Source: Planctomycetota bacterium
GTDB taxonomy: Bacteria > Planctomycetota > UBA11346
NCBI GenBank assembly: GCA_038213805.1
Contig: JBBQSO010000019.1
Location: 1,114-65,113 of the forward strand
Reading direction: 5' to 3'
DNA length: 64,000 bases
In this document: positions 2,072-59,648 of the stretch, one piece after another
Position numbering within the stretch: the stretch's first letter is position 1
Layout: each line of letters opens with the position of its first letter
Position numbers and translations under genes: made by a program
Notes under the pieces: generated by a model
Seen by the model: the letters and a program-made list of their open reading frames with translations, nothing else
The model's database searches: none
Told to the model about the DNA's origin: nothing

Positions 2072-3574
2072 ATGACCGCCTACGTCATCAGGCGCCTGCT
2101 GCTGATGATCCCGACCTTCATCGGGATCCTGATCATCAACTTCGCGGTACTGCGCCTGCAGGGGCCGACCCTGGTCGACCAGATGCAGGCCGGCGTGGGC
2201 AAGGGTGGCGGTGAGGGCGGACCTGGCGAGCGCAAGGCGCAGGGGGCGGCCAAGGATGTCGAGAACTACATAGACCGCTTCCGCAGATCCGGGCTGGACC
2301 TGCCAGCGCTGGTCAATGTGCGCGGCTTTACCGGGCGCGACGAAGTCGTCGCACGACTGCGCGACAGCGCGGGCGACGGGCCAAACCGCGAGCGGCCCAG
2401 CGTGCGCAACGGCATCGAGAAGAATCTCTGGCTGGGCGGGCCGCAGCTGGTCGAGCCGCTGCTGGCGGTCGTCGCCGACGACAGTCTCGCCACCCTGCAC
2501 GCGCCGGCGGTGCTGGCCCTGACCTACTGCGCTTATGTCACGGTGACGGCACGCGACCTGGCGCGCATGCCGGCGGAGCGGCTCAACCAGATCCAGGAGC
2601 GCAACGAACGCCTGCGCAACGACCGCATCCGCTACACCAACACCGCCAAGGGCTTCGCCACCGTCGATTCGGAGGCCGCGGCCAAGCGCGCTGACCTGCT
2701 CGCCCTGTTCGCCATTCCCGGCACACAGGCGGAATTCACGGCGGCGCGCGCCACGCGCTGGAGCGACGCGCTGCTGCGCACCGGCTTCTGCGACTTCATG
2801 GCCAAGCTCTTCACCGCCCAACTCTATTCAGAATCCCGCAAGGACTACGTGTTCTCGGTCATCGCTGACCGCTGGTACGTGACCTTCTGGCTCAACACCA
2901 TCTCGATCGTCATCGCCTGGGCCGGCTCGATCCTGCTCGGCATCCGTTCGGCGCGGCGCAGCGGTTCGCTCGAAGACCGGGTGACGACCAGCGGGCTGTT
3001 CCTGGCCTGGTCGATGCCGTCGATGTTCTTCGGGACGCTGTTGCTGTACTACTTCTGCACCGACACGAGTGGTTCGAAGGCCTGGTTCCCAAACCGCGGG
3101 CTGTCCAGCGATGGCTCGATGTGGCTGCCCACCGGGGAGTATCTGCTGGATCTACTCTGGCACGCCTTCCTGCCGCTGGTGGTGCTCAGTTACAACAGCT
3201 TCACCGCGCTCTCGCGTTACATGCGCGCCAACCTGCTTGAGCAGCTCGATGCCGACTACGTGCGCAGCGCGCGCGCCAAAGGCTGCGACGACGACGCTGT
3301 GGTCTACCGGCATGCCGTCGGCAACAGCCTGATCACCATGATCACGCTCGGCGGCGGCCTGCTCGCCGACCTGTTTTCGGGCGCGCTGATTGTCGAACTG
3401 ATCTTCAGCATCCCCGGTCTGGGCTGGCTGATGCTCGACGCCGCCATCCAGTCGGACGGTCCACTGCTGATGGGCTCGACGGTCATCACCGTGTCCCTGC
3501 TGCTGATGGGCATCCTCATCTCCGACCTGCTCTATGCGGTCGTCGACCCGCGCATCCGGGGGCGTTATGCCTGA
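2072..3574 (+). CDS. ABC transporter permease (OppB/DppB-like), with a large inserted soluble segment
   Basis: 500 aa. The C-terminal EAA-loop region and the tail 'SIPGLGWLMLDAAIQSDGPLLMGSTVITVSLLLMGILISDLLYAVVDPRIR' are hallmark OppB/DppB. There is an unusual ~150-aa hydrophilic insertion after TM1. Confidence 0.8.
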   Translation: MTAYVIRRLLLMIPTFIGILIINFAVLRLQGPTLVDQMQAGVGKGGGEGGPGERKAQGAAKDVENYIDRFRRSGLDLPALVNVRGFTGRDEVVARLRDSAGDGPNRERPSVRNGIEKNLWLGGPQLVEPLLAVVADDSLATLHAPAVLALTYCAYVTVTARDLARMPAERLNQIQERNERLRNDRIRYTNTAKGFATVDSEAAAKRADLLALFAIPGTQAEFTAARATRWSDALLRTGFCDFMAKLFTAQLYSESRKDYVFSVIADRWYVTFWLNTISIVIAWAGSILLGIRSARRSGSLEDRVTTSGLFLAWSMPSMFFGTLLLYYFCTDTSGSKAWFPNRGLSSDGSMWLPTGEYLLDLLWHAFLPLVVLSYNSFTALSRYMRANLLEQLDADYVRSARAKGCDDDAVVYRHAVGNSLITMITLGGGLLADLFSGALIVELIFSIPGLGWLMLDAAIQSDGPLLMGSTVITVSLLLMGILISDLLYAVVDPRIRGRYA

Positions 3575-4796
3575 GCAGGGCGGATCCCCGGCACAACTCG
3601 CGTGGTCCCGGTTCCTGGCGCGGCGCAGCTCCCGCTACGGACTGGGCATGCTCGCCGTGATCGTGCTGACCGGGATCTACGCGCCGTTCCTCTCCAACGA
3701 GGTGGCGCTGGTGTGGTGGGACCAGGACGGGCTGCGTTTCCCGCTGATCTGGGACCTCTTCAACCGGCGCATCTACGAGAAGATCTACGACGTCTACTTC
3801 AACGTCCTGGCGCTGCTGCTGCCGATCCTCGCGGTGGTGTTCGCCGTGCTGGGCCGGCGCATCGGTGTGACCGGCCGGTTAAAGATCGGAGTCGCGTCCC
3901 TGGCGCTGATCGGCACCTTCTGCTTGCTGCCGGTGTTCCCGGGGCATGGGGCCCGCGTCGCGGTCTGGGACCACCGCCCCTTCACCGCGTCCGGCATCCA
4001 GGAATGGAGCGCATTACCCGAGGCCAAACGCCCCTTCGCCGTGTTCACCCCGGTCAAGCACCGCTTCGACGCCACCTACCCCGGCGCAATATTACAGTCG
4101 CCTGGAACCATCAATCCGGTCACCGGCGGGCACTATTGGCTCGGCACCGACGCAGGCGGGCACGATGTCCTGACCCACCTGTTTTTCGGCGCGCGCATCA
4201 GCCTGACGGTGGGGCTGGTCGCGGCCGGGTTGTCGTTCCTCATAGGACTGGTGGTCGGCGCGGTCAGCGGCTATTTCGGCGGCTGGGTCGACCTGGTCCT
4301 GCAGCGCATCGTCGAAATCATGATGTGCTTCCCCACCTTCATCCTCATCCTGACCGTGGTGGCGATGTACAGCCGCGACATCTTCTTCATCATGGCCGTG
4401 ATCGGTCTCACCAGCTGGGCCGGAACGGCGCGCCTGGTGCGCGGCGAATTCCTGGCGCATGCGGTGCGCGACTACGTCACCGCCGTCGAAGCCCTCGGCC
4501 TGCCGCGCTGGCGCATCATGTTCCGGCACATCCTGCCCAATGCGATCGCGCCGCTGCTGATCTCGCTGACCTTCGGCATCGCCGGCTCGGTGGGCGCGGA
4601 AAGCGCGCTCGCCTTCGTCGGCCTCGGCGACCCCACCGCACCCAGCTGGGGCGTCCTCCTCGAGCAGGGCCGCGAGAACATCCGCTACCCGTGGCTGATC
4701 TACACGCCGGGACTCGCGATCTTCACGATCGTCATGACGTTGAATCTGCTGGGCAACAATCTGCGCGAAGCGATTGATCCGAAGCAGCGGCAATGA
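3567..4796 (+). CDS. ABC transporter permease (OppC/DppC-like)
   Basis: ATG 3567 overlaps the upstream stop (ATGCCTGA). Contains 'HYWLGTDAGGHDVLTHLFFGARISL...GYFGGWVDLVLQRIVEIMMCFPTFILIL', typical of OppC. The stop TGA at 4794-4796 is the first unit of the heptamer array. Confidence 0.8.
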   Translation: MPEQGGSPAQLAWSRFLARRSSRYGLGMLAVIVLTGIYAPFLSNEVALVWWDQDGLRFPLIWDLFNRRIYEKIYDVYFNVLALLLPILAVVFAVLGRRIGVTGRLKIGVASLALIGTFCLLPVFPGHGARVAVWDHRPFTASGIQEWSALPEAKRPFAVFTPVKHRFDATYPGAILQSPGTINPVTGGHYWLGTDAGGHDVLTHLFFGARISLTVGLVAAGLSFLIGLVVGAVSGYFGGWVDLVLQRIVEIMMCFPTFILILTVVAMYSRDIFFIMAVIGLTSWAGTARLVRGEFLAHAVRDYVTAVEALGLPRWRIMFRHILPNAIAPLLISLTFGIAGSVGAESALAFVGLGDPTAPSWGVLLEQGRENIRYPWLIYTPGLAIFTIVMTLNLLGNNLREAIDPKQRQ

Positions 4797-4834
4797 TGGC
4801 TGATGGCTGATGGCTGATGGCTGATGGCTGATGG
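4794..4834. repeat. Heptanucleotide tandem array (TGATGGC)x~6, left arm of heptamer-bounded element 1
   Basis: Direct reading of the sequence. The array supplies the stop codon of the upstream permease gene and contains TGA in all three forward frames. Confidence 0.9.
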
Positions 4835-4886
4835 AGACAGGATTCCGTGGAAAAGGTAAGCAACATGATGGAGGTCGGAAGGCTCG

Positions 4887-5240
4887 ATGGCCAAGACTTA
4901 CCGGGAACTTCTCGTGTGGCAGGAGGCAATGGCACTAGCAAAAGGGATCTATGTCGTGACCAAGGTGTTTCCCAAAGAGGAGCGATTCGGCCTTATATCG
5001 CAAATGCGTCGCGCTGCCGTATCCATCCCGAGCAATATCGCCGAAGGACATGGCAAATCGAGTGCCGCCCATTTCCTCAGCTACCTCGGCCATGCGCGCG
5101 GATCGCTTTTCGAACTCGAGACACAGGCCGAACTCAGCTGCGAATTCGGCTTCATCTCTGCAGCGGACATGGTGGAATTATCTCTCATGACCACCCGCCT
5201 GGGACGAATGCTAAGTCGATTCATGGAAACTCAGGAATGA
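4887..5240 (+). CDS. Four-helix-bundle protein of the '23S rRNA intervening-sequence protein' family (same fold family as DGR accessory protein Avd)
   Basis: 117 aa, 'ELLVWQEAMALAKGIYVVTKVFPKEERFGLISQMRRAAVSIPSNIAEGHGKSSAAHFLSYLGHARGSLFELETQ' matches the family signature. GC about 52% against about 70% in the flanks. Bounded by inverted heptamer arrays. Confidence 0.7.
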   Translation: MAKTYRELLVWQEAMALAKGIYVVTKVFPKEERFGLISQMRRAAVSIPSNIAEGHGKSSAAHFLSYLGHARGSLFELETQAELSCEFGFISAADMVELSLMTTRLGRMLSRFMETQE

Positions 5241-5243
5241 CGC

Positions 5244-6131
5244 ATGCCCCCTGAACCCACTGCGCCATCAGCCATCAGCCATCAGCCATCAGCCCTCCTG
5301 CAGTTCGACGACCTGCACGTCACCTTCGCACTGCGCGACCGCAACGTCGAGGCAGTCAAGGGCATCAGCTTCTCGGTATCCGCCGGCGAGGTCGTCGCCC
5401 TGGTCGGCGAATCCGGCTCCGGCAAATCAGTCTCCTCCATGTCCGTGCTGCGCCTCCTCCAGGAACCGCCCGCAACCTACCCGCGCGGCCGCATCCTGTG
5501 GAAGGGCGAGGACATCCTGCACATGGACAAGGCGCGCCTGCGCCGGCTGCGTGGTGGCGAGGCGGGGATGATTTTCCAGGAGCCGATGACCGCGCTCAAC
5601 CCGACCTGGACCTGCGGGGACCAGGTCGACGAGGCACTTGCCCTGCACACCGCGCTCGACCAGAAGGCGCGCCGCGCGCGCACCGTCGAACTGTTCCGCC
5701 TGGTCGGCATCCCGCAGCCCGAGACGCGCGCCGACCAATACCCGCACGAGCTTTCTGGCGGCATGCGTCAGCGCGTCTGCATCAGCATGGCGCTGGCCTG
5801 CCGGCCGCAGCTGCTGATCGCCGACGAACCCACCACGGCGCTCGACGTCACCATCCAGGCGCAAATCCTTGAGCTGATCAAGCGCCTGCAGCGCGAGCAG
5901 GGCCTGGCGGTGCTGTTCATCACCCACGACCTGGGCGTGGTCGCCGAGCTCGCCGACCGCGTGGTGTTGATGCGCCATGGCGCGATCGTCGAGCAGGGTC
6001 CCGTAAAGGAGATCTTCACCAATCCCCAGCACCCCTACACCAAGGGACTGCTCGCGTGCCGGCCGCGCTTGGGCGTGCGGCGGGATCGGTTGCCGACGGT
6101 AGATGACTTCATGGCGGGGGCGGGGGGCTGA
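5244..6131 (+). CDS. ABC transporter ATP-binding protein (OppD/DppD-like)
   Basis: Walker A 'GESGSGKS', signature 'LSGGMRQR', Walker B '[12 protein letters not shown]' and the C-terminal oligopeptide-ABC tail. The first ~18 codons are encoded by the repeat element, so the true N-terminus is uncertain. Confidence 0.85.
5264..5294. repeat. Heptanucleotide tandem array (GCCATCA)x~4.5, right arm of element 1 (inverted relative to 4794..4834)
   Basis: Direct reading. Lies inside the 5' end of the ATPase ORF, where it is translated as '[10 protein letters not shown]'. Confidence 0.9.
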
Positions 6132-6328: not shown

Positions 6329-6913
6329 GTGGCTGTGAGTCCAGGCGATGCCGAGCCATCTGACAGACGACTGCTTGAACGTTACTGCCGTCATGGCGAC
6401 GTCGGGGCCTTCGGCAGCCTGCTCGACCGGCACCAGGGCGACCTGCTGCGCTTCGCGCATTCCCTGCTCGGCGACGCGCATGCCGCCCAGGACGCCGTCC
6501 AGGAGGCGTTCTGCCGGCTGTGCCGCGAGGCGCACCGGCTGGGGCAGGGGGCCGCTGGCCAGGACTCACTGGGGGGTTGGCTGTGCACCGTCGTGCGCAA
6601 CGCCTGCATCGATGTCCTGCGCCGCCGGAGCTACGCGCCCATGACCACCATCGCCGAGCACCAGGAAGGCCAGGGCGCATCTCCCAGCGCTGCCGTCGCC
6701 GCCAGCGACGCCGGCGAATCGCTGTGGCGCGCGGTCGCCACCCTGCCGCCGCTCGAGCGCGCCGCGGTGGTGCTGCGCTACCGCGACGGTCTCAGCTACC
6801 AGGATATCGCCGTGCGCCTGGGCAAGACCGCGACGCACATCGGCGTGCTGCTCCACCAGGGACTCGGACGGCTGCGCCAGAGCGAACGCCTGCGCGCGGG
6901 GGTGATGCCATGA
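6329..6913 (+). CDS. ECF (sigma-70 family, group IV) RNA polymerase sigma factor
   Basis: 194 aa. Region 2 'DAVQEAFCRLCREAHRL...GWLCTVVRNACIDVLRRR' and region 4 'LPPLERAAVVLRYRDGLSYQDIAVRLGKTATHIGVLLHQGLGRLR'. Confidence 0.85.
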   Translation: MAVSPGDAEPSDRRLLERYCRHGDVGAFGSLLDRHQGDLLRFAHSLLGDAHAAQDAVQEAFCRLCREAHRLGQGAAGQDSLGGWLCTVVRNACIDVLRRRSYAPMTTIAEHQEGQGASPSAAVAASDAGESLWRAVATLPPLERAAVVLRYRDGLSYQDIAVRLGKTATHIGVLLHQGLGRLRQSERLRAGVMP

Positions 6914-20673: not shown

Positions 20674-22023
20674 CTACCTGCCGACCACCATCGCCCCGAG
20701 CGGCGCGACCGGTGCGTGCTCCACGCGTCCGATCGCGAACGGCGATTCACGGACGAAGATACCGGTCGGCGTCTTGTACCGCCGGTCGGTGGTACCGTCG
20801 CTGCCGAAGGTCGTCCAACCGGTTGTCGCGATGCCGGTGAAGCGCACGATGCGGCTGTTGCCGGTGTCCGCGACGTAGGTGCGGCCGGAGTGGCTGGTGT
20901 AGACTCCAACCGGCTGTGCAAACTCGCCGACGGCCGACCCCGCGGTGGGACCGCCCAGGAACTGGAAATTGGTGCCGTCGATGTCGTCCATGCGCACGAT
21001 GCGGTTGTTGCCGGTGTCTGCGACGAAGATGTGGAAGCTGCCGTCGACGCAGATCCCGCCGGGCGCGTTGAACTGGTTGATGCCGCTTCCGGAAACTCCG
21101 AAGGGCGTGAATCCGCTGCCCGAGACATCCCTGGTCATGTTGGTGATCGCCACGATGCGGTTGTTGCCGGTGTCTGCGACGTAGACCTTGGAATTGACGT
21201 CTACGAAGATGCCTGATGGCGAGCTGAACTGCAGAGTCGTCGAACCGAGCGGCGGAAACACCACCGGGTTGGTGTCGCTGACGCCGCTCATGCGCAGGAT
21301 GCGGTTGTTGCCGGTGTCGGCGATGTAGATGTTGCCGTCGGCACCGATGCACATGCCGCGCGGGTTGGATAGTTGCGGCCCGCCATTGGTGAAGGAGCTC
21401 GAAGTGGCAAAGCCCGCGACACCGCCCGAATCGTTCATCTGCACCACCCGGTTGCGCGCGGCGTCGAGGTGGAAGATGTGAAACGACGCATCGCGGCACA
21501 CTGCCACGGGCTCACTAAACAGGTCGGCACTGCCCGGGCCGCCCTTGGAGGTGGCCACCCAATTCGTCCCGACCATGTCATCGAAGAAGGACAGCCGATG
21601 GTTGGTGCCATTCGCGGTGATCTCGTTCCCAACCGCCCCATCCGCCACGTCGATGCCGATATCGGTGCCCAGCGTGACCGTCCCGGTGGCGATGGTGATG
21701 ACCAGCGTACCGCTGCCGGACTTGCCGGCGAAGGTCCCAGCCGTCACCGTGACCGTGGTCGTTCCGGCCGCGGTCGGCGTCCCCGAGATCACCCCGGTCG
21801 TGGGGGCGATCGCCAGACCAGCCGGCAGGGGGGTGGCGGGATCGACGCCAAACGCCGAGGGGCTGTTGGTGGCCGTCACCGTGAAGGTGAACGGAACCCC
21901 CACCTGCCCGGTGGCCGTACTGGCACTGGTGATGACCGGGTTGTCTTTCTTCGTGCAGCCGACCTGCAGCAGCAGGGCGAGCAGGCAACCGAGGAAGACA
22001 AGCTGGGCGCGGAGGGTGATCAT
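20674..22023 (-). CDS. NHL-repeat beta-propeller lipoprotein with an N-terminal Thr/Ala-rich Ig-like region
   Basis: Lipobox 'LLQVGC'. At least four 'Y(I/V)ADTGNNRI(V/L)R' NHL repeats. 449 aa. Confidence 0.75.
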   Translation of the reverse strand: MITLRAQLVFLGCLLALLLQVGCTKKDNPVITSASTATGQVGVPFTFTVTATNSPSAFGVDPATPLPAGLAIAPTTGVISGTPTAAGTTTVTVTAGTFAGKSGSGTLVITIATGTVTLGTDIGIDVADGAVGNEITANGTNHRLSFFDDMVGTNWVATSKGGPGSADLFSEPVAVCRDASFHIFHLDAARNRVVQMNDSGGVAGFATSSSFTNGGPQLSNPRGMCIGADGNIYIADTGNNRILRMSGVSDTNPVVFPPLGSTTLQFSSPSGIFVDVNSKVYVADTGNNRIVAITNMTRDVSGSGFTPFGVSGSGINQFNAPGGICVDGSFHIFVADTGNNRIVRMDDIDGTNFQFLGGPTAGSAVGEFAQPVGVYTSHSGRTYVADTGNSRIVRFTGIATTGWTTFGSDGTTDRRYKTPTGIFVRESPFAIGRVEHAPVAPLGAMVVGR

Positions 22024-27692: not shown

Positions 27693-27835
27693 GCTGATGG
27701 CTGATGGCTGATGGCTCCGTATCCGTCGTGGATCGCTCTGGTCTGCAACGCAGACCTTGTCATCACTATCCTGATGCCGGCGCACCGCGCCGGCTTCAGG
27801 ATCAGCCATCAGCCATCAGCCATCAGCCATCAGCC
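27693..27835. repeat. Heptamer-bounded element 2: (GCTGATG)x3 - 84-bp spacer with hairpin - (CAGCCAT)x5
   Basis: Direct reading. Arms at 27693-27716 and 27801-27835. The spacer palindrome is gtctgcaacgcagac. The element abuts the stop of the HEAT-repeat gene. Confidence 0.85.
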
Positions 27836-27839
27836 CCCC

Positions 27840-29444
27840 CTACGGCACCGGGTCCTTGCGCGGCTTCGCCACCTGCTTCTTCGGCTTGGGTGCCGGCTGG
27901 GGGTCGGCAGCGGGATCGGGCTCGCTGGTGGCGGTGTCGGACTGGCCACCCGCCTCGGGGTCATCGGGCAGTGCGATCTTCTCGCCGGTCGCCCAGGTCC
28001 GCCAGGCGGCGATGCCCTTGCCACGCTCCTCGTCACTGCCGCGCGAGTCGTAGCCGACATCCTTTTTGGAGATGGTCTTGAGCAGATTGTTGCTCTTGCG
28101 GCGTACGATCGCGTCGGGTGAGGCCAGGCCGCCGATCAGCACGGGCACGGCCTCCTTGCCCTTGCCGAGCAAATTGGATTCCGCGGTCTGCGCGACGTTG
28201 CCCTCGATGCTCGAAAGCTGGACCACCCACACCGTGGCAGGATCGACCGGCCCGCTGGCCGCCTTGGCCTGGGCCTCCTTGGCCTCGCTGGGGTCGAGCG
28301 GGAAGATGAACGACGATCCCTTTTCCTTCCACCACTTCTCGAGCTGCGCAACGATCTTGCCCTTGGTGTCAGCGGGCATCTCGACGTCGTACGACCAGTC
28401 GCTGTTGCTCAGGCGCGAGATCATCGAGATAGCGTCGGCGTTCACCGCGTGGTCGTCGACCTTGAGCAATTTGATGAGTACCGGCACGATGGCCTTGTCC
28501 TTGAGGTCGTAGAGGCCTTTGGCTGCCTCGATGGCGATCTTGGGGTCGGCGTTGCGCAGCTGCTCCGCCAGCACCGTCTGCTCCGAAGTATCGTGATTGA
28601 GGTCCCACCAGGCCTTGACCCGGGCAGCGGTCAGGCCGTCCTTGGGTAGCAGCGTGATCTGCTGGGCGCCGCCGGTCGCGGCGCGACGCACGCCCTCGTT
28701 GGCGTGGTCCATCAATTCGATCAGGCGCGGCACCACGCGGCGGTCGCGGAAGTAGGCGACGGTATAGGCGAAAGTCTCGAGGTCCTCGGGATCGGTGACG
28801 CGTGCGCTGGCCGCGACCATAAAGCCGAGCAGCGGACGCACCGCACGCAGCTGGTGCTTCTTGATCAGCTCAAGGACGATCTGGCAGGGACCGTAGAGGT
28901 CCGTGAAGTCGTCGCGCAGCAGGGCGGCACACAGGCACGGCACCGCCGCCGGGCGGCAGTCCTCGCGCATTAGGGTGCGCACCGCCGAGTCCATATCGTC
29001 GCTGTCGTTGCGCGCGCGGTTCATGCGCTCGACCTGGCCCTTCACGAAATCGCTGCCGTCGGGGATCTTCGGCGGCTTGAGGTCCCACTGGATCTGCTGC
29101 GCGGTCGGGCCGGGTCCAGCGGCGTGGCGTTCCGGGGACGAGCTACCGGGCTTGTCGCCCTTGGCGTGGCCGGCGCCGGCGGGGCCGTTGGCCGCCACCC
29201 AGCGCTCGCCGACGCGCACCTGGCCCATCTTGGCCCGCGCCGCCTCGTGGTCCTTGTCCAACTCGATGACCTTGCCGTACAGCTGGCGCGCCCGGGTCGG
29301 CTTGTTGTGGCCCTCGCACCATTCGGCAAATGCATAGACCGAGTCGGCGTTGCCCATGTCGGTGCGCTTCTGGACATCCTCCATGGACTCCTCGGCGGCG
29401 GCCATGGCGATGGTCATCAGGATCAGGATTAGGACACGGAACAT
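27840..29444 (-). CDS. Secreted HEAT/armadillo-like repeat protein with a basic Pro/Lys-rich C-terminal tail
   Basis: Start at 'MFRVLILILMTIAMAAA' (signal peptide). Repeated 'AI(V/E)..AA.(A/K)L..L.D' helical motifs. Tail 'PQPAPKPKKQVAKPRKDPVP'. Confidence 0.45.
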   Translation of the reverse strand: MFRVLILILMTIAMAAAEESMEDVQKRTDMGNADSVYAFAEWCEGHNKPTRARQLYGKVIELDKDHEAARAKMGQVRVGERWVAANGPAGAGHAKGDKPGSSSPERHAAGPGPTAQQIQWDLKPPKIPDGSDFVKGQVERMNRARNDSDDMDSAVRTLMREDCRPAAVPCLCAALLRDDFTDLYGPCQIVLELIKKHQLRAVRPLLGFMVAASARVTDPEDLETFAYTVAYFRDRRVVPRLIELMDHANEGVRRAATGGAQQITLLPKDGLTAARVKAWWDLNHDTSEQTVLAEQLRNADPKIAIEAAKGLYDLKDKAIVPVLIKLLKVDDHAVNADAISMISRLSNSDWSYDVEMPADTKGKIVAQLEKWWKEKGSSFIFPLDPSEAKEAQAKAASGPVDPATVWVVQLSSIEGNVAQTAESNLLGKGKEAVPVLIGGLASPDAIVRRKSNNLLKTISKKDVGYDSRGSDEERGKGIAAWRTWATGEKIALPDDPEAGGQSDTATSEPDPAADPQPAPKPKKQVAKPRKDPVP

Positions 29445-29715
29445 AAGCGGGCTCCGAGGCGGGCGGCGGCGCGGACGGCGGTAGGCAAGGCACCAGGATA
29501 CAGGGTGAACGCAGGATACCGAGAATGGATTGCCTGTATCCGTCGTTCTTGTCGCGCAGCGTATGCAACCCCTTGCTGCTGGGTGACACGGAGCAGCCCT
29601 CGGCAGGCGCCGGAGCCGTGGCGTAAAGGCCTTTGTGCCGCCGGAGATGCCAGCTATCGTCGACTCCCCGGGCGCCCCGGAAGCGCGCCCTCCTGGACCC
29701 TGCACAAGGAACCGC

Positions 29716-30303
29716 ATGCCCATTCCGTATGTCATTGAGAAGGATTCCCGCGGCGAGCGCAGCTACGACATCTACAGCCGGCTGCTCAAGGACCGCATCA
29801 TCTTCCTTGGTGAGGTCATCGACGACTACGTCGCCAACGTGGTGATCGCCCAGCTGCTCTTCCTGCAGAGCCAGAAGCGCGATGCTGACATCACCTTGTA
29901 CATCAACAGCCCGGGCGGTTCGGTGACCGCAGGCTTCGCGATCTTCGACACCATGGCCTACCTGACCTGCGACGTGGCCACGGTGTGCATCGGCCAGGCC
30001 GCCAGCATGGGCGCCTTCCTGCTCGCCTCGGGCACCAAGGGCAAGCGCTTCGCCCTGCCCCACAGCCGCATCATGATCCACCAGCCGATGGGCGGCACCC
30101 AGGGCCAGGCCAGCGACATTGAGATCCAGGCCAAGGAGCTGATCCGCATGAAGAAGGAGCTCGGCCGCATCCTCGCCGAGAAGACCGGCAAGCCGATCGA
30201 GAAGGTCACCAAGGACAGCGAGCGCGACTTCTTCATGAGCGCGGAAGAAGCCTGCGCCTACGGTCTCATCGACCGCGTCGTCTCGAAGCCCGTCTCGACC
30301 TGA
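29716..30303 (+). CDS. clpP: ATP-dependent Clp protease proteolytic subunit
   Basis: '[19 protein letters not shown]...[11 protein letters not shown]...[11 protein letters not shown]...MIHQPMGG' contains the catalytic Ser and His context. Confidence 0.9.
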
Positions 30304-43147: not shown

Positions 43148-43159
43148 CTTTACTGTGAG

Positions 43160-43316
43160 ACAGCCGGACAGCCCCAAAGCCAGGCAGCCGGACAGCCGGA
43201 CAGCTGGATAGAACAAGAGGAACGGAGGAACGGAGGAGAGGCTGGGTGGCGATACGGTAAGCCGGAGTCTGACTTTTCGCTCTCCGTTCCTCGTGTTTTA
43301 TTAGGCTGTCCATCCG
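43160..43316. repeat. Composite palindromic intergenic element, family B (core CAGCCGGA(C/T)AG..GGATAGAACAAGAGGAACGGAGG with an inverted partner)
   Basis: Direct reading. Tandem 'cagccggacagcc' and 'ggaacggagga' units, with an imperfect inverted arm 'ctccgttcctcgtgttttattaggctgtcc'. Related to the element at 59445..59648. Confidence 0.7.
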
Positions 43317-43420
43317 CCTGGTCGAAGCGAGAAGCCCGGGTTCCGGCCCTTGCTGCGGGGGGCGGCCGGGGCTAACCTTCTTAGCCCCGGCGACATGCCC
43401 CGGGCATCGGGAAAAAGCCC

Positions 43421-44535: not shown

Positions 44536-44686
44536 GGTCCGGGATTCCGGAAGTCCGGCAGTCGGACAGCCCCGTTTCCTCACGCACTACCGGACCGCGC
44601 TTGATCGCACCGGCACGGGCGCGCGCAGCGTCACCACACCCACGCAACGAGACTTCCGGAGTTCCGGACTCCGGACTCCCGGACCA
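44536..44686. repeat. Composite palindromic element, family A (arms built from GTCCGGAA(G/T)TCCGG units, ~90-bp spacer)
   Basis: Left arm ggtccgggattccggaagtccggcagtcggacagcc. Right arm gacttccggagttccggactccggactcccggacc, an imperfect inverted copy. Sits between convergent genes. Confidence 0.8.
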
Positions 44687-44695
44687 GTTTCGCCG

Positions 44696-46798: not shown

Positions 46799-46962
46799 GC
46801 CAATCCTCAGGGTGAGGGGCCAAAATGGCGCCCGGGCCGGGCCAGACAAGCCCCGGGTGGGGCGCGTCGCCACAGGACCGTGCGGCGCACCACCCAGCCG
46901 CGTCTGCCCCGACTGGCTCTGGTATTGTGATTTGGGAACGGGGCAACACGATCGACCCACGC

Positions 46963-47817
46963 ATGTTGAAGCTCGAAGTCTTGAATACCGCCTTCAAGGG
47001 CAAGCAGTTCCGTTTCAAGGAAGGCCTTGTGGTCGGGAGCGCCGAGGGCTGCGCCATCCGCGCCCAGCACACCGGGATGCAGGCCGAGCACGCCCGCTTC
47101 TACACTGACAACAACCACTCGATGGTCGAGATCGCCTGCAAGGAGGCCCATCTCTACGTCAACGGCCGGGACGTCGTGCGCAGCGAGCTGCGCCACCAGG
47201 ATGAGATCACCATCGGCCCCCTGCGCCTGCGCGTGGTCGACGACTCGCGGGTCAGTTCGGGGGCGATGCAGCTCGACCAGCTGCTGAGCGAGATGGAGGG
47301 CCAGGAGGCCTCTGACACCCTCTACGACTTCGCCCGCGAAGATCTCTTCTACCTGTCCACCAAGGACCCGGCCCTGCGCACGCGGATCAACTTCGTGATC
47401 CCGAGCAAGGACAAGTTCATCGATCAGGCCCAGGTCTTCCTCGCCCGCCTGGTCAAGGGCGGCACCATGGACGAGCAGCAGGTCGACTCCTTCATGACCT
47501 GCGCCAAGGAACTGATCCTCAACGCCCACCGCCACGGCCACACCTACGATGAGAGCAAGCGCATCACCCTGCGCTTCCGCGACGCCGGCGACCGCATCTC
47601 GCTGACCATCGTTGATGAGGGCAAGGGCTTCGACCACCGCGGCCTGCTCGCCAAGGTCAACGAGAAGGACGCCGCCCAGGCGGCGCGCGAACGCTACCAG
47701 GCCGGTGGTTTCGGCGGCCTCGGTTTCAAGCTGATCACCAAGCTGGCCAAGGATCTGACCTATAACGAGTCGGGCAACCAGGTGACGTTCACGGTGATGA
47801 AGCAGCCGGCGGAGTGA
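46963..47817 (+). CDS. FHA domain fused to a GHKL/HATPase_c (RsbW/SpoIIAB-type anti-sigma serine-kinase-like) domain
   Basis: FHA '[56 protein letters not shown]...[10 protein letters not shown]'. ATPase '[11 protein letters not shown]...[13 protein letters not shown]...[15 protein letters not shown]' (N, G1, G2 boxes). No HisKA/DHp domain. Confidence 0.6.
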
Positions 47818-47829
47818 GCGGCGGGCCGG

Positions 47830-47986
47830 CTGATGCCAGCCTGGCTGATGGCTGATGGCTGATGGCTGATGGCCGGCCGCTGGTGGAATTCCGGGTGACA
47901 ACCAACTTCAGCACGGCCACTCACCGGCGCACAGCGCCGGTGAGTCAGCCATCAGCTATCAGCCATCAGCCATCAGCTATCAGCCG
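47830..47986. repeat. Heptamer-bounded element 3: (GCTGATG)x~5 - ~70-bp spacer with hairpin - (CAGCCAT/CAGCTAT)x~6
   Basis: Direct reading. Arms at 47830-47873 and 47947-47986. The spacer palindrome is caccggcgcacagcgccggtg. It begins 12 nt after the FHA-GHKL stop and lies ~45 nt upstream of tRNA-Leu. Confidence 0.85.
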
Positions 47987-48115: not shown

Positions 48116-48286
48116 GCGCCCACGATCCGGCCCGTCCGGGTCGTGGGCTTTCTCTACAGCTTGGATGCTTGCAGAGGGGCTGCGCGCGCCCAAGACGGTG
48201 ATCCCCGGCGCACGACCTCGCGTGCGCGGTGTCCGCCATGAGTGCGCACCGCGCGGCCGCTGCTCCCCTCCTCCGATGCACGATCC

Positions 48287-51200
48287 ATGATCCTCGCGGG
48301 CGCCCACCGACCCGATCTGCTGCGCGCCGAAACCCTCCCCGACCTGTTCGAGGCCAGCGCACGCGCGCACCCCGAGCATCCGGCGCTGATCGCCGGCCGG
48401 CGCACGCTCAGCTACGGCGCGCTCGACACCGCCGCCGGGCGCATCGCCCACCGCCTACTCGCCGCCGGCCACGCGTCGCCGGGGCGCATCATCGGGCTGT
48501 GGCTGCCACGCGGCGCCGACCTGCTCACCGCCCAGCTTGGCATCGCCAAAGCCGGCTGCGCGTGGCTGCCGTTCGCCGACGATGCCCCCGCGCAGCGCGT
48601 CGCCGAGTGCCTGCGCGACGCCGGCGCGGTGGCGCTGATCACCGATGCGGCGCTCGCCGCCAGTCTTCCCGCCGGTCTGGAGCCGGCACCGCTGGTGGTC
48701 GACGGGTTGCTCGCCGAGCTGCCGCCGGGCACCCTGCCGCTACGTCGCGAGGGCCTGGGCGGCGAGCATCCGGCCTACGTCATCTACACCTCAGGCTCGA
48801 CCGGCCGTCCCAAGGGCATCGTCGTGCCGCAGCGTGCGATCTGCCACTTCCTGCGCGCTGAAAACGCGCTGCTCGGCGTGACCAGGGATGACCGCGTCTA
48901 CCAGGGCTTCTCTGTGTCCTTTGACATGTCCTTCGAGGAGATATGGATCAGCTGGCTGGTCGGCGCCACGCTGTGGCTCGCGCCCAAGACGGTGACCACC
49001 GATCCCGACGCGCTGCTCGCGGCGCTCACCGGGCAGCGCATCACCGTGCTGCACGCGGTACCCTCGCTGGTCGCGCTGCTGCCGGCGCTGCCGGCGTGCC
49101 TGCGCCTGCTCAATCTCGGCGGCGAGGCCTGTCCGCAGGCGCTCGCCGACCGCCTCACGGTGCCGGGACGGCGCGTGTTCAACACCTATGGGCCGACCGA
49201 GGCGACGGTCAGCGCCACGTTCGCCGAGCTGCGCAACGGCGCGCCGGTGACGATCGGCGGCCCGTTGCCCAACTATGGTCTGGCGATCGTCGACGAGGCG
49301 CTGCAGCCGGTGCCGGCCGGCGCCCCGGGCGAGCTGTGCATCTTCGGTCCCGGCCTGGCGAGCGGCTACCTCGGTCGTCCCGACCTGACCGCCGAGCGCT
49401 ATCCGCAGGGGCCGTTCGCGGCCCTGCCCGGGATCGAGCGGCTCTATCGCACCGGCGACATGGTGCAGCTCGATGGCGAAGGCGCGCTGCGCTTTCTCGG
49501 ACGCAGCGATGACCAGCTCAAGGTGCGGGGCTTCCGCGTCGAACCGGGCGAGATCGAGGAGGCGCTTACCGCCCAGCCTGGCGTCGCCGCAGCCGCGGTG
49601 GTGATGCGCGCGGAAGCCGCAGGGGAGGGCCTGGTGGCGTTCCTGGTGGCGGCGGGCGCCGCGGACGCCACGCCGACGGATGCCACGGAGCGCGAGACCG
49701 CGCTACGCCGTACGCTCGCGGAGGCGCTGCCCGCCTACATGGTCCCGTCGCGCTTCGTGACCGTCGCCGCGTTGCCGCGCCTGCCTTCGGGCAAGGTCGA
49801 CCGCAAGGCACTGCGCGACCAGGTGCTGCCCGCCCTGCCGGCCGCGGCGGGCGGCGACAAGCCGCGCACCCTCGCAGAGGCGTCGCTGTTCGCCGCGCTC
49901 GCCCCGCTCTTCCCAGGGCGCGCGCTGCGCCGTGGTGATGATTTCTTCAGCGATCTGGGCGGCCATTCGCTGACCACGGCGCGCCTGGTCTCGGCACTGC
50001 GCGCGGACCACGGATTCCCGCAGGCGGCGGTGCGCGACATCTACCTGCACCGCCGCCTCGACAGCATCGCCGCCGCGCTCGAGGCCGCGGGTGGCCGGGT
50101 GCAGGCGAGTGCGCCCGGGCCGTCGGCCTGGGCCCGCGCCCACGCCTGCCGCCGCCAGCGCTGGGCCTGTGGACTGGTCCAGACCATGCTGCTGCCCATC
50201 CCGGTGTGCGTGCACCTCGCCACCTGGCTGGCGCCGTTCTTCGCCTACCACTACTTGACCGGAGACGAAGAGGACAGCGTCCAACTCGCAGCGCTGCTCG
50301 CGACGCTGGTGTTCCTCGCTGTCCAGGTGCTGTCGTTCGTGATCGCGGTGGCGGCGAAGTGGCTGGTGCTCGGGCGCCTGCGCCCGGGCCGCTACCCGCT
50401 GTGGGGCGTCACCTACTTGCGCTGGTGGTTCGGCGAGGTCATGGCGCACGCCGCGCCGGTCTACCTGCTGAACGGCACACCCCTGTATCGCATCTATCTG
50501 CGCCTGCTCGGCGCGCGCATCGGCCGCGACGTCGCGATCGCCGGGGTCGAGGTCGCCGCACCCGACCAGCTCGAGATCGGCGACAACGTCGCCATCGGCA
50601 CCGCGGTGAGCATCGCCAACGCGCGCGTCGAAGACGGCTTCCTGGTGGTCGGCCGCGTGGTCATCGGCGCCGGCGCCCTGGTCGACTCCTACGCGGTGCT
50701 GGAAGGCGATACCGCGGTCGGCGCCGGCGCCACCCTTGGCCAACTCTCGGCCCTGCGCGCCGGTGCCAAGGTCCCGGCGGGCGAGTGTTGGGAGGGCGCA
50801 CCCGCGCGCTACGTCGGTGCGGACGAGACCGGCGTGGAGCCGCAGTTCACCCCGTCCATGCCGCGCCGGATCTTCGAACTGGCCTTCTATCCACTCGCCT
50901 CGGCGGTGATCTCGGCGATCTTCTTCCTGCCGGTGTTCCCCGCCTTCATGGTCATCGACGCGATCGACGCGCGCTGGCTCGACACCTTTGACAGCGACAC
51001 CCACACCCTAATCGCGGCCGGGGTCTACCTGGTGCTCGCGCTACCGGCGGCGGCGGTGCTGGTGGTGATCACCCTGTTCGCGGCGGCCCTGCTGCGCCGC
51101 GCCGCCTGCCCGCGGCTTGAGCCTGGCTCGTGGCCGATCCACGGCGCGGTCTACTATGGCAAGTGGGTCGCCGCGCAGATCCAGGAGAGCAGCCTGCACC

Positions 51201-52342: not shown

Positions 52343-52452
52343 CTCCCCGCCGTGCGAAGCGTGCACGACGGCGCGCGGGGATGGGCGCAGCAGCGCGACC
52401 ATCCCCGCACCACGAGACTTCCGGACCTCCGGACCCCGGACTTCCGGACTGC
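52295..52452. repeat. Composite palindromic element, family A (TCCGGAAGTCCG arms with a central GGGGATGG...CCATCCCC palindrome)
   Basis: Left arm ggtccggaattccggaagtccgaaagtccggatgtcggac. Right arm gacttccggacctccggaccccggacttccggac. Lies between the convergent pls-like and dksA-like genes. Confidence 0.8.
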
Positions 52453-54396: not shown

Positions 54397-54438
54397 GGGG
54401 GTCCGGAAGTTCCGGAGTCCGGAAGTCCGGAAGTCGGG
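54397..54438. repeat. Family A repeat fragment (GTCCGGAAGTTCCGGAGTCCGGAAGTCCGGAAGTCGGGAC)
   Basis: Direct reading. A single arm without an obvious inverted partner. Lies in the 5' region of the lpxK ORF. Confidence 0.7.
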
Positions 54439-54474
54439 ACGGGCGAGGCGCGGCAGTGGACCACGCCGCCGCTG

Positions 54475-59444: not shown

Positions 59445-59648
59445 CGGTCGGGACGGAACCGGACGGCCGGATAGAACAGGAGCCGCGGAGACGCAGAGAT
59501 CGGCGGAGGACGGCCGCTCGAAGGTTTGCGGTCGTTGCTGTGCCGTGGAGAGCGCACGGGACCCGGCCGCCATCGCCTGCTCAAGGCTCTGCGTCTCCGC
59601 GCCTCTTGTTCTATCCGGCTGTCGGCAGTAGGCAGTCGGAAGTCGGAC
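59445..59648. repeat. Composite palindromic element, family B (inverted CCGGATAGAACA(G/A)GAG...GGAGACGCAGAG arms, ~90-bp spacer)
   Basis: Left arm ccggatagaacaggagccgcggagacgcagag. Right arm ctctgcgtctccgcgcctcttgttctatccgg, followed by a gtcggaagtcggac tail that links it to family A. Lies between pyrF and convergent ilvE. Confidence 0.8.

Follow-up and report, generated by a model that had tools for sequence, protein, structure and literature searches.

Intervening sequences (IVSs) of 23S rRNA, known from Coxiella burnetii and also from Leptospira, are elements of 428–444 nt bounded by a terminal inverted repeat, with an ORF of the PF05635 family in the loop. In the Coxiella IVS, a 28-bp stem encloses the S23p ORF and carries tandem GACAGAT heptamers, which vary between two and three copies; RNase III cleaves this stem in its middle, at the first of the repeats (PMC4990558). 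The authors of that study considered S23p to be probably not expressed and still called the function and origin of the IVS unclear (PMC4990558). The nature of IVSs and of their conserved ORF, as well as the role of the abundant S23 proteins, has been an open question since about 1990. Known IVSs occupy helix 9, 25 or 45 of 23S rRNA, where cutting is harmless, and genes for the IVS protein (IVP) have also been located between cmr3 and cmr2 (PMC3936711). Among the accessory Pfams near DGR reverse transcriptases, PF05635 is the most frequent (PMC10053308); the DGR RNP has an RNA stem-loop to which the Avd pentamer binds (bioRxiv 2023.10.23.563531).

Heptamer repeats, which are over-represented in bacteria (PMC4692102), form a second body of work. 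In the Xanthomonas campestris genome, 70 pairs of arrays converge, typically with four units each (PMC4692102), and the xanthomonad arrays were read as G-quadruplex-forming simple repeats (Rehm et al. 2015, PMC4692102). A four-unit GGGAATC array is listed at the start of XCC0516, 6 nt from the upstream bccP (PMC4692102 supplement); the terms ‘23S' and ‘S23' occur 0 times each in that paper, and the IVS-protein family is not mentioned. In Geobacter metallireducens, four to five tandem units of 7–8 nt lie in intergenic regions, mostly as inverted pairs (Aklujkar et al. 2009, PMC2700814), and tandem heptanucleotides are known from Calothrix PCC 7601 (cited in PMC4692102). The Geobacter repeats, families of paired hepta- and octanucleotides, and those of Calothrix resemble the arms described below; they have been taken for binding sites of regulators or left as repeats of uncharacterised kind, and the texts searched do not connect them with PF05635 genes or rRNA IVSs.

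A gene-bearing hairpin between oppC and oppD

Positions 4794–5294 of the window, that is, of the whole 64-kb stretch of DNA analysed here, hold a PF05635 gene resembling XCC0516 between two inverted arrays of 7-nt units, which form a stem of about 30 bp with the gene in its loop. The length of this cassette is about 500 nt (497–501). Its features and neighbours, together with two further hairpins of the window, are as follows.

3534–4796, plus strand: oppC-like ABC permease ORF (PF00528 and OppC_N; 97% identical to P0121)
4794–4834, plus strand: left (5′) arm, (TGATGGC)5.9, G-rich, with TGA in all three frames (Tandem Repeats Finder (TRF), pattern search, three-frame translation)
4835–4886, plus strand: 52-nt leader within the loop, with SD-like GGAGG at 4870–4874 and GGAAGG at 4877–4882 (sequence)
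4887–5240, plus strand: 117-aa gene of the 23S-rRNA-IVS family (S23p, ‘four helix bundle protein'; Pfam, NCBIfam, alignment, AF2)
5244–6131, plus strand: oppD-like ABC ATPase ORF (Pfam ABC_tran and oligo_HPY)
5264–5294, plus strand: right (3′) arm, (GCCATCA)4.4, a perfect 31-bp complement of the left arm (TRF, duplex energy)
27693–27835, strand not given: ORF-less hairpin with TGATGGC heptamer arms and an 84-nt loop
47842–47985, strand not given: ORF-less hairpin (hairpin 3) with TGATGGC heptamer arms and a 71-nt loop

An earlier note on this DNA had described heptamer arrays on both sides of the 117-aa gene, and TRF bears this out, with TGATGGC ×5.9 and GCCATCA ×4.4 at 100% matches each. The two arms form a perfect 31-bp duplex (−69.8 kcal/mol) and are paired in the minimum-free-energy fold of the full 531-nt stretch (z=−3.6). 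The 21-mer (TGATGGC)3 occurs 15 times in the window, compared with 0 times in 100 shuffles. A scan of 4400–5700 returned no consensus promoter or terminator. The lower GC content that the earlier note had reported was also found, with values of 0.525–0.58 over 4700–5299 against 0.62–0.71 in the flanks, and of 0.54 for the IVP ORF against 0.68. Such a difference is seen in 71 of 74 homologous loci, with an ORF GC that correlates with host GC; a low GC content thus characterises the entire protein family and is no evidence of recent foreign origin.

The closest described system is the 23S rRNA IVS, not a DGR. Both the IVS and the cassette have a loop with an ORF of the PF05635 family, a terminal inverted repeat (stem of ∼28 bp in the IVS, 31 bp here) and tandem heptamers in the 5′ arm, variable in copy number in the IVS and represented here by (TGATGGC)5.9; the sizes are 428–444 nt and 501 nt, respectively, and both have a GC content below that of the host and a patchy distribution among relatives. 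They differ in location, since the cassette lies not in an rRNA helix but in a protein-coding operon, between oppC and oppD (Rfam gives only two tRNAs in the window). Unlike the IVS, the cassette abuts a stop codon, donates the start of the next gene and is a predicted, rather than a demonstrated, substrate of RNase III.

Both junctions affect the neighbouring reading frames. The oppC stop codon, TGA at 4794–4796, is the opening triplet of the left array, which agrees with the claim that this array supplies the permease stop. On the other side, the oppD start, ATG at 5244, sits 3 nt past the IVP stop codon, and the SD-like AGGAA ahead of it (5233–5237) lies inside the IVP gene. This ATG is the only usable oppD start, because the next in-frame start codon is found beyond Walker A. 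Its frame runs intact through the right array, so that the start codon and residues 1–17 of OppD are cassette-derived and residues 8–17 are encoded by the right arm, in line with the earlier statement that the right array is translated as part of the ATPase.

In a relative with a 97% identical OppC (L115), 10 nt separate the stop of oppC from the start of oppD, and neither the gene nor the arrays are present; its OppD has 283 aa (starting MSEAPLLQFDD), compared with 295 aa here. In an 81% relative the site is likewise empty, as judged by gene calls, so that at the opp locus relatives without arrays are also without the gene. The flanks of the window and of L115 are 93.5% and 91.7% identical in nucleotide sequence. 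Because L115 has neither IVP gene nor arrays, the comparison indicates that the whole cassette entered or left the site in one piece after the split from this relative of ∼93% nucleotide identity. The earlier description of an element inserted exactly between the two genes holds in so far as it is a discrete block, but ∼498 bp replace 25 bp that include the native oppD start and first five codons. With a single filled/empty pair, diverged by ∼7%, the junctions are not resolvable to the base; no target-site duplication is visible at them.

The position of the right arm, between the oppD start at ATG 5244 and the body of the gene with the frame intact, raises the question of a domesticated regulatory module, which would act by phase variation of OppD or by a stem that sets the oppABC:oppD expression ratio. 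As at contingency loci, the repeat unit is not divisible by three and lies inside a reading frame, and the gain or loss of one unit therefore shifts that frame. In simulations, one right-arm unit added or removed gives out-of-frame OppD products of 211 or 106 aa, while the loss of three restores the frame; unit numbers do vary among close relatives elsewhere and among Coxiella strains. Against such a function, an in-frame arrangement would arise by chance one time in three. In most homologous cassettes (including that at locus L127) the downstream start codon follows the right arm, which makes the opp arrangement peculiar to this locus and not the reason for the class. A regulatory module is a quite unlikely explanation; oppD may now be a potential slippage-controlled on/off gene as a side effect of the cassette. 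The neighbours of the IVP gene include, besides the Opp genes, an ECF sigma factor.

The encoded protein and its relation to Avd

Placement of the 117-aa protein in the 23S-rRNA-IVS family, as proposed earlier, is firmly borne out by PF05635 (E=6e-36, 123.3 bits; cut-off 33.8) and TIGR02436 (113.1 bits; cut-off 24). All 20 family-invariant columns of a 33-sequence alignment are kept, RRAAVSIPSNIAEG among them, and the conserved motif of the IVP family, GxxRxxxSxxxNxxE (PMC3936711), is found as QMRRAAVSIPSNIAEG. The AF2 model (pLDDT 96.8) shows four helices. Its closest solved structure in a Foldseek search is X. campestris XCC0516 (PDB 2GSC; TM 0.96, 38–40% identity), itself matched by the family profile at E=2.5e-40, and the model also resembles 2RLD (BT_0352; TM 0.83). 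Both PDB entries contain five chains, and a pentameric assembly of the 117-aa protein is accordingly expected by homology. The four-helix bundle has no known catalytic fold and is the sole ORF of the cassette. The likeness to XCC0516 extends to its surroundings, where a G-rich 5′ heptamer array lies near the upstream gene as in the cassette; the unit of that array differs from TGATGGC, and no inverted partner is listed.

The earlier note had placed the protein in the same family as Avd. This is correct at the level of fold or superfamily: the 117-aa protein shares the four-helix bundle of Avd (4DWL; TM 0.81, r.m.s.d. 1.6 Å in Foldseek), with a TM of 0.81 also to chains of the DGR RNP (8UB7 to 8UBE), and the pentamer of Avd has its counterpart in the pentamer expected here. 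However, sequence identity to Avd is 10%, and the Avd models stay below their cut-offs (NF033474, 27.5 against 80, E=3e-6; PF22296 (bAvd), 18.1 against 40), so that identification of the protein as Avd itself was rejected. Nor has enclosure by inverted heptamer arrays, as present at the cassette, been reported for Avd.

A decayed or dispersed part of a DGR, either an orphan Avd or an Avd serving in trans, would account for the shared fold, for the weak NF033474 match and for the frequency of PF05635 near DGR reverse transcriptases (PMC10053308). Yet none of the 25 scanned ORFs of the window has a reverse transcriptase domain, and the window contains no long near-identical direct repeat that could serve as a template/variable pair, as the earlier note had likewise observed for the surroundings of the gene. 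Identity to XCC0516, at 38–40%, far exceeds the 10% to Avd, no phage hit was obtained, and 61 of 80 homologues reside in a like compact cassette between housekeeping genes. Within the window a DGR origin is largely refuted, and we consider it very improbable. The element had been called a solitary Avd-like cargo; it is solitary and not part of a DGR, but the term ‘cargo' is probably a misnomer. The scanned ORFs of the window likewise showed no transposase domain.

Homologous cassettes and hairpins without a gene

We surveyed 80 metagenomic homologues of the IVP gene, with some tests performed on subsets. Matched inverted arrays of 7–8-nt units surround the gene in 61 of the 80, and with the window and loci L033 and L114 this gives 64 arm-flanked cassettes, with an array period of 7 in 52 and of 8 in 9. 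At least one arm-flanked member occurs in 59 of 78 protein clusters (90% identity). A flank-to-flank inverted repeat is found in 48 of 78 homologous loci, compared with 2 of 78 in a direct-orientation control, and array density beside IVP genes is 18 times that elsewhere on the same contigs. Stems have a median of 30 bp (interquartile range 25–31), whole elements a median of 480 nt, and the leader and trailer in the 64 cassettes medians of 44 and 6 nt. The G-rich arm lies upstream of the IVP gene in 53 of 62 loci (p=1e-8). Across loci the IVP gene is constant and the arm sequence variable; the units nevertheless share an A-G-T-G core (5.36 bits, against 3.62±0.19 for shuffled units), to which TGATGGC is a poor fit. 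Arrays of AGTAGGG or AGGGTGT flank cyanobacterial IVP genes, and bearers in culture include Nostoc, Gemmatirosa and Xanthomonas.

Placement in operons is equally regular. In 43 of 52 loci the gene upstream runs in the same direction, and in 30 of 50 the left arm begins no more than 6 nt from the stop of such a gene, against 2.1% at control positions (p=2e-37), a placement confirmed by eye in L127. The order pheS/IVP/pheT recurs in five orthologous loci, in which the arms have diverged yet are still complementary; other contexts are histidine kinase/IVP/response regulator and MacB/IVP/MacB. One cassette runs antisense to its host nrdAB operon, and its arm polarity still follows the IVP strand. 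No target-site duplication was found in 48 of 52 loci, and duplications were fewer than in shuffled pairings. In a rough check, the rRNA motifs looked for were absent from all 80 sampled loci. The opp cassette is a member of a large class with common anatomy, present in many phyla and including the Coxiella 23S rRNA IVS; no description of this widespread array-bounded architecture was found in the literature searched.

It follows from these data that the arrays are not microsatellites unrelated to the boundaries of the insert, since they track those of the gene in 61 of 80 homologous loci. Single three-unit TGATGGC arrays do occur sporadically across many phyla, and the general excess of heptamer repeats in bacteria (PMC4692102) could suggest that two unrelated arrays happen to flank an ordinary small gene. 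Such a coincidence is extremely improbable and is refuted by the array counts (15 matches in the window against 0 expected), by the perfect complementarity over 31 bp, by the recurrence of the arrangement in the survey as opposed to its direct-orientation control, and by the joint absence of arrays and gene from L115.

The search for further heptamer arrays led to the two ORF-less TGATGGC hairpins listed above, which the earlier note had missed. The right arm of the first ends 4 nt from the stop of the minus-strand gene 27840–29735. The second lies between the stop of gene 46825–47817 and a tRNA-Leu, at a site where no array is present in a 97% relative (L197; contig ending 44 nt past the stop) or in a 71% relative (L198). 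The window thus has three copies of the TGATGGC arms in 64 kb and, as in MITEs, combines shared arms with site polymorphism; the three hairpins may have arisen as a single arm family recently multiplied at this place. REP, BIME, REPIN and MITE elements are also short, multi-copy, polymorphic hairpins just past stops in operons, and the ORF-less copies of the window look like non-autonomous members of this kind. The cassette differs from REPs and MITEs in its 7–8-nt tandem arms, which vary from hairpin to hairpin, in the gene within its loop, and in the lack of a target-site duplication and of any identified RAYT or transposase. The loops of the two ORF-less TGATGGC hairpins have no homology to the ends of the opp cassette, and these hairpins are therefore not simple deletion derivatives of it.

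Host hairpins of REP or REPIN type might pre-exist behind stop codons, with IVP genes landing in their loops and the arms being the target. Hairpins without an ORF do outnumber those with an IVP gene, both in the window (five and a solo arm, with four different units, against one) and across 114 genome loci (∼20 ORF-less TGATGGC hairpins, in 18 of these loci, against 2 with an IVP gene); they likewise abut stop codons, their loops are unrelated to the cassette, and at L055 a tRNA gene lies between inverted arrays. On the other hand, the empty site of L115 has neither hairpin nor gene, the polarity of the arms follows the strand of the IVP gene in 53 of 62 loci, including the cassette antisense to nrdAB, and leader and trailer (medians of 44 and 6 nt) are too short to be separate transposon ends. 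We regard landing in ready-made hairpins as unlikely.

Stem mismatches are divided equally between G.U-type (36) and A.C-type (37) and bear no sense-RNA signature, so that complementarity could be preserved in the DNA itself or through copying of one arm from the other, rather than by selection for RNA pairing. This leads to another alternative, modelled on IS200/IS605 or REP-RAYT elements, in which a cruciform or single-strand hairpin is recognised by an HUH-type or other transposase acting in trans and the RNA stem is a by-product. The want of a target-site duplication, as for IS200/IS605, is compatible with such an element, as are the sharing of one arm sequence by copies with unrelated interiors and the change of unit number between the near-identical loci L173 and L177 (4.4 against 5.4 and 7.3 against 6.3 units). 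What argues against it is that no transposase occurs in the window and none was seen, in an unsystematic look, within 2 kb of the 80 loci, and that RNase III cutting of the homologous Coxiella stem has been shown experimentally (PMC4990558). Furthermore, one genome, or even one contig, can bear hairpins with different units, and such differences argue against a single sequence-specific trans factor. A purely DNA-level element is rather unlikely, with somewhat more in its favour than the other alternatives.

Proposed action of the cassette and its wider meaning

We therefore consider that 4794–5294 is probably a self-contained, selfish cassette of the IVS type that resides in an operon. Its IVP gene would be transcribed by read-through from the host operon, and the arms, on pairing in the transcript, would give a long perfect duplex that RNase III may cut as it cuts the Coxiella IVS. 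The cut would free the IVP message and divide the operon transcript in two, with ribosomes ending on oppC or starting on oppD competing with arm pairing. By analogy with its homologue Avd, to which an RNA stem-loop is bound, the IVP most likely acts on the cassette's own arms, and would therefore be the element's own gene rather than cargo.

Several observations are at odds with this account. The oppD start lies within the loop, and cutting of the stem would part it from the body of oppD, which looks costly. There is no target-site duplication and no nearby transposase or reverse transcriptase; G.U and A.C mismatches are equal in number, the genome has hairpins with other units, and TGATGGC fits the AGTG core poorly. 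The loops of ORF-less hairpins are unrelated to the cassette, and Coxiella S23p is probably not expressed (PMC4990558).

A broader and more doubtful proposal is that PF05635 cassettes form a distinct class of autonomous mobile element, of which rRNA IVSs are only the best-known landing sites. A pentameric, Avd-like protein would then recognise its own AGTG-type units of 7–8 nt, with about one protomer per unit on arms of four to five units (∼30 nt), and would promote copying or insertion right behind stop codons without target duplication. Decay or mobilisation in trans would explain much of the excess of heptamer repeats and inverted pairs, examples being Xanthomonas GGGAATC, the paired repeats of Geobacter and the cyanobacterial heptamer arrays.

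The opp locus, with the survey that followed from it, brings together rRNA IVSs, Avd-like orphan proteins and the unexplained heptamer repeats of bacteria, which we found treated separately. They yield rules of anatomy, namely a stem of ∼30 bp built of 7–8-nt units, an AGTG core, a polarity fixed by the gene, no target duplication, a start at the upstream stop and residence within operons. Since these rules are measurable, the question becomes tractable experimentally in cultured organisms, of which X. campestris (XCC0516), Nostoc punctiforme and Gemmatirosa are suitable bearers, two of these cases with crystal structures or genetic tools. The occurrence of ‘23S_rRNA_IVP' in cas loci or as a CRISPR-linked gene may reflect an operon-invading habit rather than a function in CRISPR. 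Finally, the cassettes can rewrite the termini of their neighbours, as here with the oppC stop and the N terminus of OppD, the latter with a potential frameshift switch.

The oppC-oppD cassette and its protein

The segment at 4794-5294 has the make-up that an earlier note had read from it. Tandem Repeats Finder, profile matches and a GC scan confirm two inverted arrays bounding a gene of the 23S-rRNA-IVS protein family (hereafter IVP) and a lower GC content (0.53-0.58 within the segment versus 0.62-0.71 outside). The sequence and its ORFs also bear out that the left array supplies the stop codon of the upstream permease and that the right array is translated as part of the ATPase ORF.

Features of the cassette segment
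4794-4834: left array, TGATGGC x5.9, zero mismatches (Tandem Repeats Finder)
4794-4796: TGA stop codon of the Opp/Dpp-type permease ORF, formed by the first three bases of the left array
4887-5240: IVP ORF, 117 aa (PF05635, E=6e-36; TIGR02436, well over cut-off)
5244: ATG of the ABC ATPase (oppD) ORF, 3 bases past the IVP stop; its frame crosses the right array
5264-5294: right array, GCCATCA x4.4, zero mismatches (Tandem Repeats Finder)

The three-unit TGATGGC 21-mer occurs in 15 copies in the window versus 0 in 100 dinucleotide-preserving shuffles, and the unit yields stop codons in all three frames. The two arms are computed to form a perfect duplex of 31 bp (-69.8 kcal/mol), and they are paired in the minimum-free-energy fold of the entire cassette segment. 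A promoter scan finds no promoter-like site in the cassette, and arms and loops match no known RNA family in Rfam. Direct reading of the sequence places the following in-frame start codon of oppD only past the Walker A motif, so that ATG 5244 is the sole usable oppD start. An ECF-type sigma factor gene (6329-6913) lies directly downstream of oppD, and the region past it, to 20629, holds three partly overlapping high-GC ORFs of about 1400, 1285 and 2170 aa.

The IVP structure model (pLDDT 96.8) shows four helices and superposes best on XCC0516 of Xanthomonas campestris (2GSC; TM 0.96, 38-40% identity), followed by BT_0352 (2RLD; TM 0.83) and Avd (4DWL; TM 0.81), the accessory protein of diversity-generating retroelements (DGRs). 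The closest sequence relative of IVP, itself aside, is 61% identical. The earlier note had placed the protein in the same family as Avd; a common fold and superfamily stand, but identity to Avd is just 10% and the protein stays below the cut-offs of Avd-specific models, so that the tie is not one of family membership. As the note had stated, the surroundings contain no reverse transcriptase (no such domain in 25 scanned window ORFs) and no template repeat (no template/variable-like direct-repeat pair in the window). Together with the unreached Avd models, these results lead us to reject an orphan DGR part. The window is ordinary chromosome, encoding ClpX, dehydroquinate synthase, IspG, LeuCD and the like, and a phage collection yields no IVP homologue. 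Four diverged 91-nt direct repeats with about 150 nt spacing (20819-21359), in a minus-strand gene with NHL-repeat and Ig-like parts, are ordinary protein-repeat periodicity, unrelated to the cassette.

The strongest likeness is instead with the intervening sequences (IVSs) of rRNA. The 23S IVS of Coxiella burnetii spans 428-444 nt and has a 28-bp terminal stem with an S23p ORF in its loop, three tandem GACAGAT heptamers whose count differs by strain, and a mid-stem RNase III cut at the first repeat (PMC4990558). The window cassette resembles this type most, but lies outside rRNA, at the oppC-oppD junction. It is thus best classed as a non-rRNA cassette of IVS type, and the earlier overall reading proves largely right: the finding is real, with the assignment shifted from DGR part to IVS-type cassette.

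Comparison with the opp locus of close relatives, which the earlier note had proposed, is informative. In L115, a Planctomycetes MAG whose permease is 97% identical to that of the planctomycete host, 10 nt separate the permease stop from the ATPase start, with neither IVP gene nor array between them, and the oppC-oppD arrangement of an 81% relative is likewise empty according to its gene calls. The claim that the element is inserted exactly between oppC and oppD holds as to the empty site, but not as to exactness: about 498 bp in the window replace 25 bp of L115 that include the native oppD start, OppD being 295 aa in the window and 283 aa in L115 (starting MSEAPLLQFDD). The cassette is therefore a discrete block that has been gained or lost, in an event that is recent on the scale of flank divergence, since DNA identity of the flanking genes is 93.5% and 91.7%. 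At this 7% divergence global alignment is uninformative and the junctions are not mappable to the base; weak similarity hints that the former intergenic spacer could persist on the left side of the right arm, but we place no weight on it. In a 73% relative (L116, 5224-5571) the junction is occupied by another, unrelated gene of 115 aa that no arrays flank; its start overlaps the oppC stop and its stop overlaps the oppD start, and it has a weak DUF6968 match and no NCBIfam match. The junction has been invaded at least two times independently.

Arm-flanked IVP genes across the family

Metagenomes were scanned with a profile built from 33 sequences, giving 598 confirmed relatives, the best 80 of which were analysed. 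Comparison of the 300 nt upstream with the 300 nt downstream of the gene reveals an inverted repeat with a score of 16 or more in 48/78 loci, versus 2/78 in the direct-orientation control, and Tandem Repeats Finder detects matched inverted tandem arrays in 61/80 loci. The arm-bearing share is unchanged after clustering (59/78 clusters at 90% identity, 36/49 at 70%), and arrays are 18 times denser beside the IVP gene than elsewhere on the same contigs. Adding the window and two further loci, L033 and L114, to the 61 gives 64 arm-flanked cassettes, with a period of 7 in 52, 8 in 9, 9 in 2 and 6 in 1. Arrays typically hold about 4.3 copies and the stem has a median length of 30 bp (interquartile range 25-31). 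The left arm lies a median of 44 nt from the start of homology and the right arm a median of 6 nt past the IVP stop codon, and the whole element has a median length of 480 nt (497-501 for the window cassette). GC content of the IVP ORF is below that of its flanks in 71/74 loci (median gap 6.8 points; r=0.63 between the two), making the GC dip seen earlier in the window a family trait.

Unit sequence varies among loci, with the complementarity of the two arms kept. After optimal rotation the units share an A-G-T-G core, whose positions 1-4 are matched by 44, 45, 38 and 33 of the 49 units in turn (5.36 bits versus 3.62 +/- 0.19 in shuffled units); TGATGGC fits this core loosely, its closest common unit being AGTGGCT. 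In 53/62 cases the arm upstream of the IVP gene is the G-rich one (p=1e-8). TGATGGC arms also surround the IVP gene in L033 (Gemmatimonadaceae) and L114, with opposite arm polarity; in L114 the right heptamer array (4884-4906) encodes the last residues of IVP itself (…KLMADG) and its stop codon. The idea that the arrays exist to provide three-frame stops was not adopted, since enrichment is marginal (27 versus 21.9 expected in 49 units, p about 0.07).

Placement relative to neighbouring genes is precise. The upstream neighbour is co-directional in 43/52 cases, and the left arm starts within 6 nt of a co-directional upstream stop codon in 30/50 loci versus 2.1% in the control (p=2e-37); with a convergent downstream gene, no more than 6 nt separate that gene's stop codon from the end of the right arm in 14/48 loci versus 2.6% in controls. 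In L127, a locus typical by eye, the first AGTGACG unit contains the upstream stop TGA; behind the right arm come AAGGAG, a five-base spacer and the start codon ATG of the next gene. Five orthologous loci (L143, L146, L155, L169 and L184) have the cassette between pheS and pheT, exactly from the pheS stop to the pheT ribosome-binding site; their arms are 9-mers (AGCGGAGTT) in four and an 8-mer in one, diverged and still inverted complements, which suggests long vertical persistence with both arms evolving together. Other operon contexts place the gene between a histidine kinase and a sigma-54 regulator, or between two MacB genes. No target-site duplication is detectable in the surveyed loci and no mobility enzyme was identified. 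A rough check of the 80 loci finds none of the conserved rRNA motifs it looked for, and just outside the arms there is no position-specific motif, solely a purine-rich, C-poor bias upstream.

Cultured organisms carry the same arrangement. Arm-flanked IVP genes are present on a Gemmatirosa kalamazoonensis plasmid (arms of 43 nt), on pNPUN01 of Nostoc punctiforme and on pNe_5 of Nostoc edaphicum (L202, 1104-1594), where the cassette, with AGTAGGG/AGTGGGG arms, lies between nrdB and nrdA, antisense to both. The supplement of a study of Xanthomonas GGGAATC repeats records an array of 4 units that overlaps the XCC0516 start and lies 6 nt from bccP; the IVS-protein family goes unmentioned in the paper (PMC4692102). 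Geobacter metallireducens has repeat families with four to five tandem hepta-/octanucleotides each, mostly in inverted pairs (PMC2700814), and IVP genes have been reported between cmr3 and cmr2 within cas operons (PMC3936711), and within rRNA insertions of CPR bacteria. The architecture is widespread, and the literature searched, with subscription-only papers outside its scope, holds no prior account of PF05635 genes with inverted heptamer arrays.

Hairpins without an ORF and the probable unity of gene and arms

The window also contains inverted array pairs with no protein gene in the loop.

Arrays and hairpins without an ORF in the window
27693-27835: TGATGGC-type hairpin, 84-nt loop (array search)
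~43159-43320: hairpin of a third kind, 12 nt past the ispG (GcpE) stop
44537-44690: GTCCGGAA octamer hairpin, loop ~85 nt, array 3-6 nt past the stop at 44533
47842-47985: TGATGGC-type hairpin, 71-nt loop (array search)
52296-52450: GTCCGGAA octamer hairpin, loop ~85 nt, array overlapping the end of long ORF 48242-52342
54401-54439: GTCCGGAA solo arm, array 3-6 nt past the stop at 54394

Each of the TGATGGC-type hairpins sits immediately past a stop codon and, read along the adjacent gene, opens with its G-rich arm; their loops have an inner CCGGCGCACNGCGCCGG hairpin in common. These loops do not align with the cassette ends, and we reject the hairpins as deletion derivatives of the cassette. 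The site of the 47842-47985 hairpin shows no array in two relatives: one at 97%, with a contig that runs only 44 nt past the stop, and one at 71%, with tRNA-Leu directly behind the gene. Hairpins without an ORF are thus gained and lost as well. The two GTCCGGAA loops share similar ends (…CACGA/GACTTCCGG), and a GTCGGAA array related to this family lies at 59621-59647. The left arm of the third kind consists of two octamer arrays in succession, GACAGCCG x6 and then GAGGAACG x2.6, and its right side is complementary. A scan of a genome collection for (TGATGGC)3 returned at least 114 loci; most carry just one 3-unit array and come from phyla unrelated to each other, so that the heptamer sequence alone is not diagnostic. 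In a Gemmatimonadaceae MAG (L055, 6736-7101), inverted TGATGGC-type arrays surround, by eye, a tRNA-like gene with a terminator-like hairpin behind it; arm pairs can therefore bracket things besides protein genes.

The abundance of such hairpins, with unrelated loops, keeps alive the explanation that the IVP gene lands in pre-existing hairpins. However, the empty L115 allele has no hairpin, and arm polarity is fixed to the gene even where the cassette lies on the strand opposite to its host operon. Both observations favour gene and arms being one unit.

Proposed expression and cleavage, and possible consequences for oppD

How such a unit might work is suggested by what is established about RNase III and by the experiments in Coxiella. 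The IVP gene would be expressed from host read-through transcripts, in which the arms may fold into a long perfect duplex cleavable by RNase III; cleavage would free a small IVP message and split the operon RNA. In the window it would decapitate oppD, because the oppD start sits inside the loop, a point that weighs against this model. In the DGR ribonucleoprotein an RNA stem-loop is bound by an Avd pentamer (bioRxiv 2023.10.23.563531); by analogy with this RNA binding, and given the conserved unit core and the match of 4-5 units per arm to a pentamer, IVP may act on the arms of its own cassette. The model is also tempered by the stem mismatches: selection on pairing of the sense-strand RNA, which would predict an excess of the G.U type, finds no support (36 G.U-type versus 37 A.C-type), and stem complementarity may therefore persist through the DNA level or arm-to-arm copying.

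Since the right array, with its 7-nt unit, sits between the start and the body of oppD, OppD is a candidate slippage-controlled gene: one unit more or one fewer puts the product out of frame, and simulated removal of three units brings it back in. This trait is peculiar to the present insertion and does not extend to the class.

Taken alone, the locus adds one further member to its class. The class-level rules would come as a surprise to most specialists, and with them the long-standing question of the role of IVS ORFs becomes directly testable.
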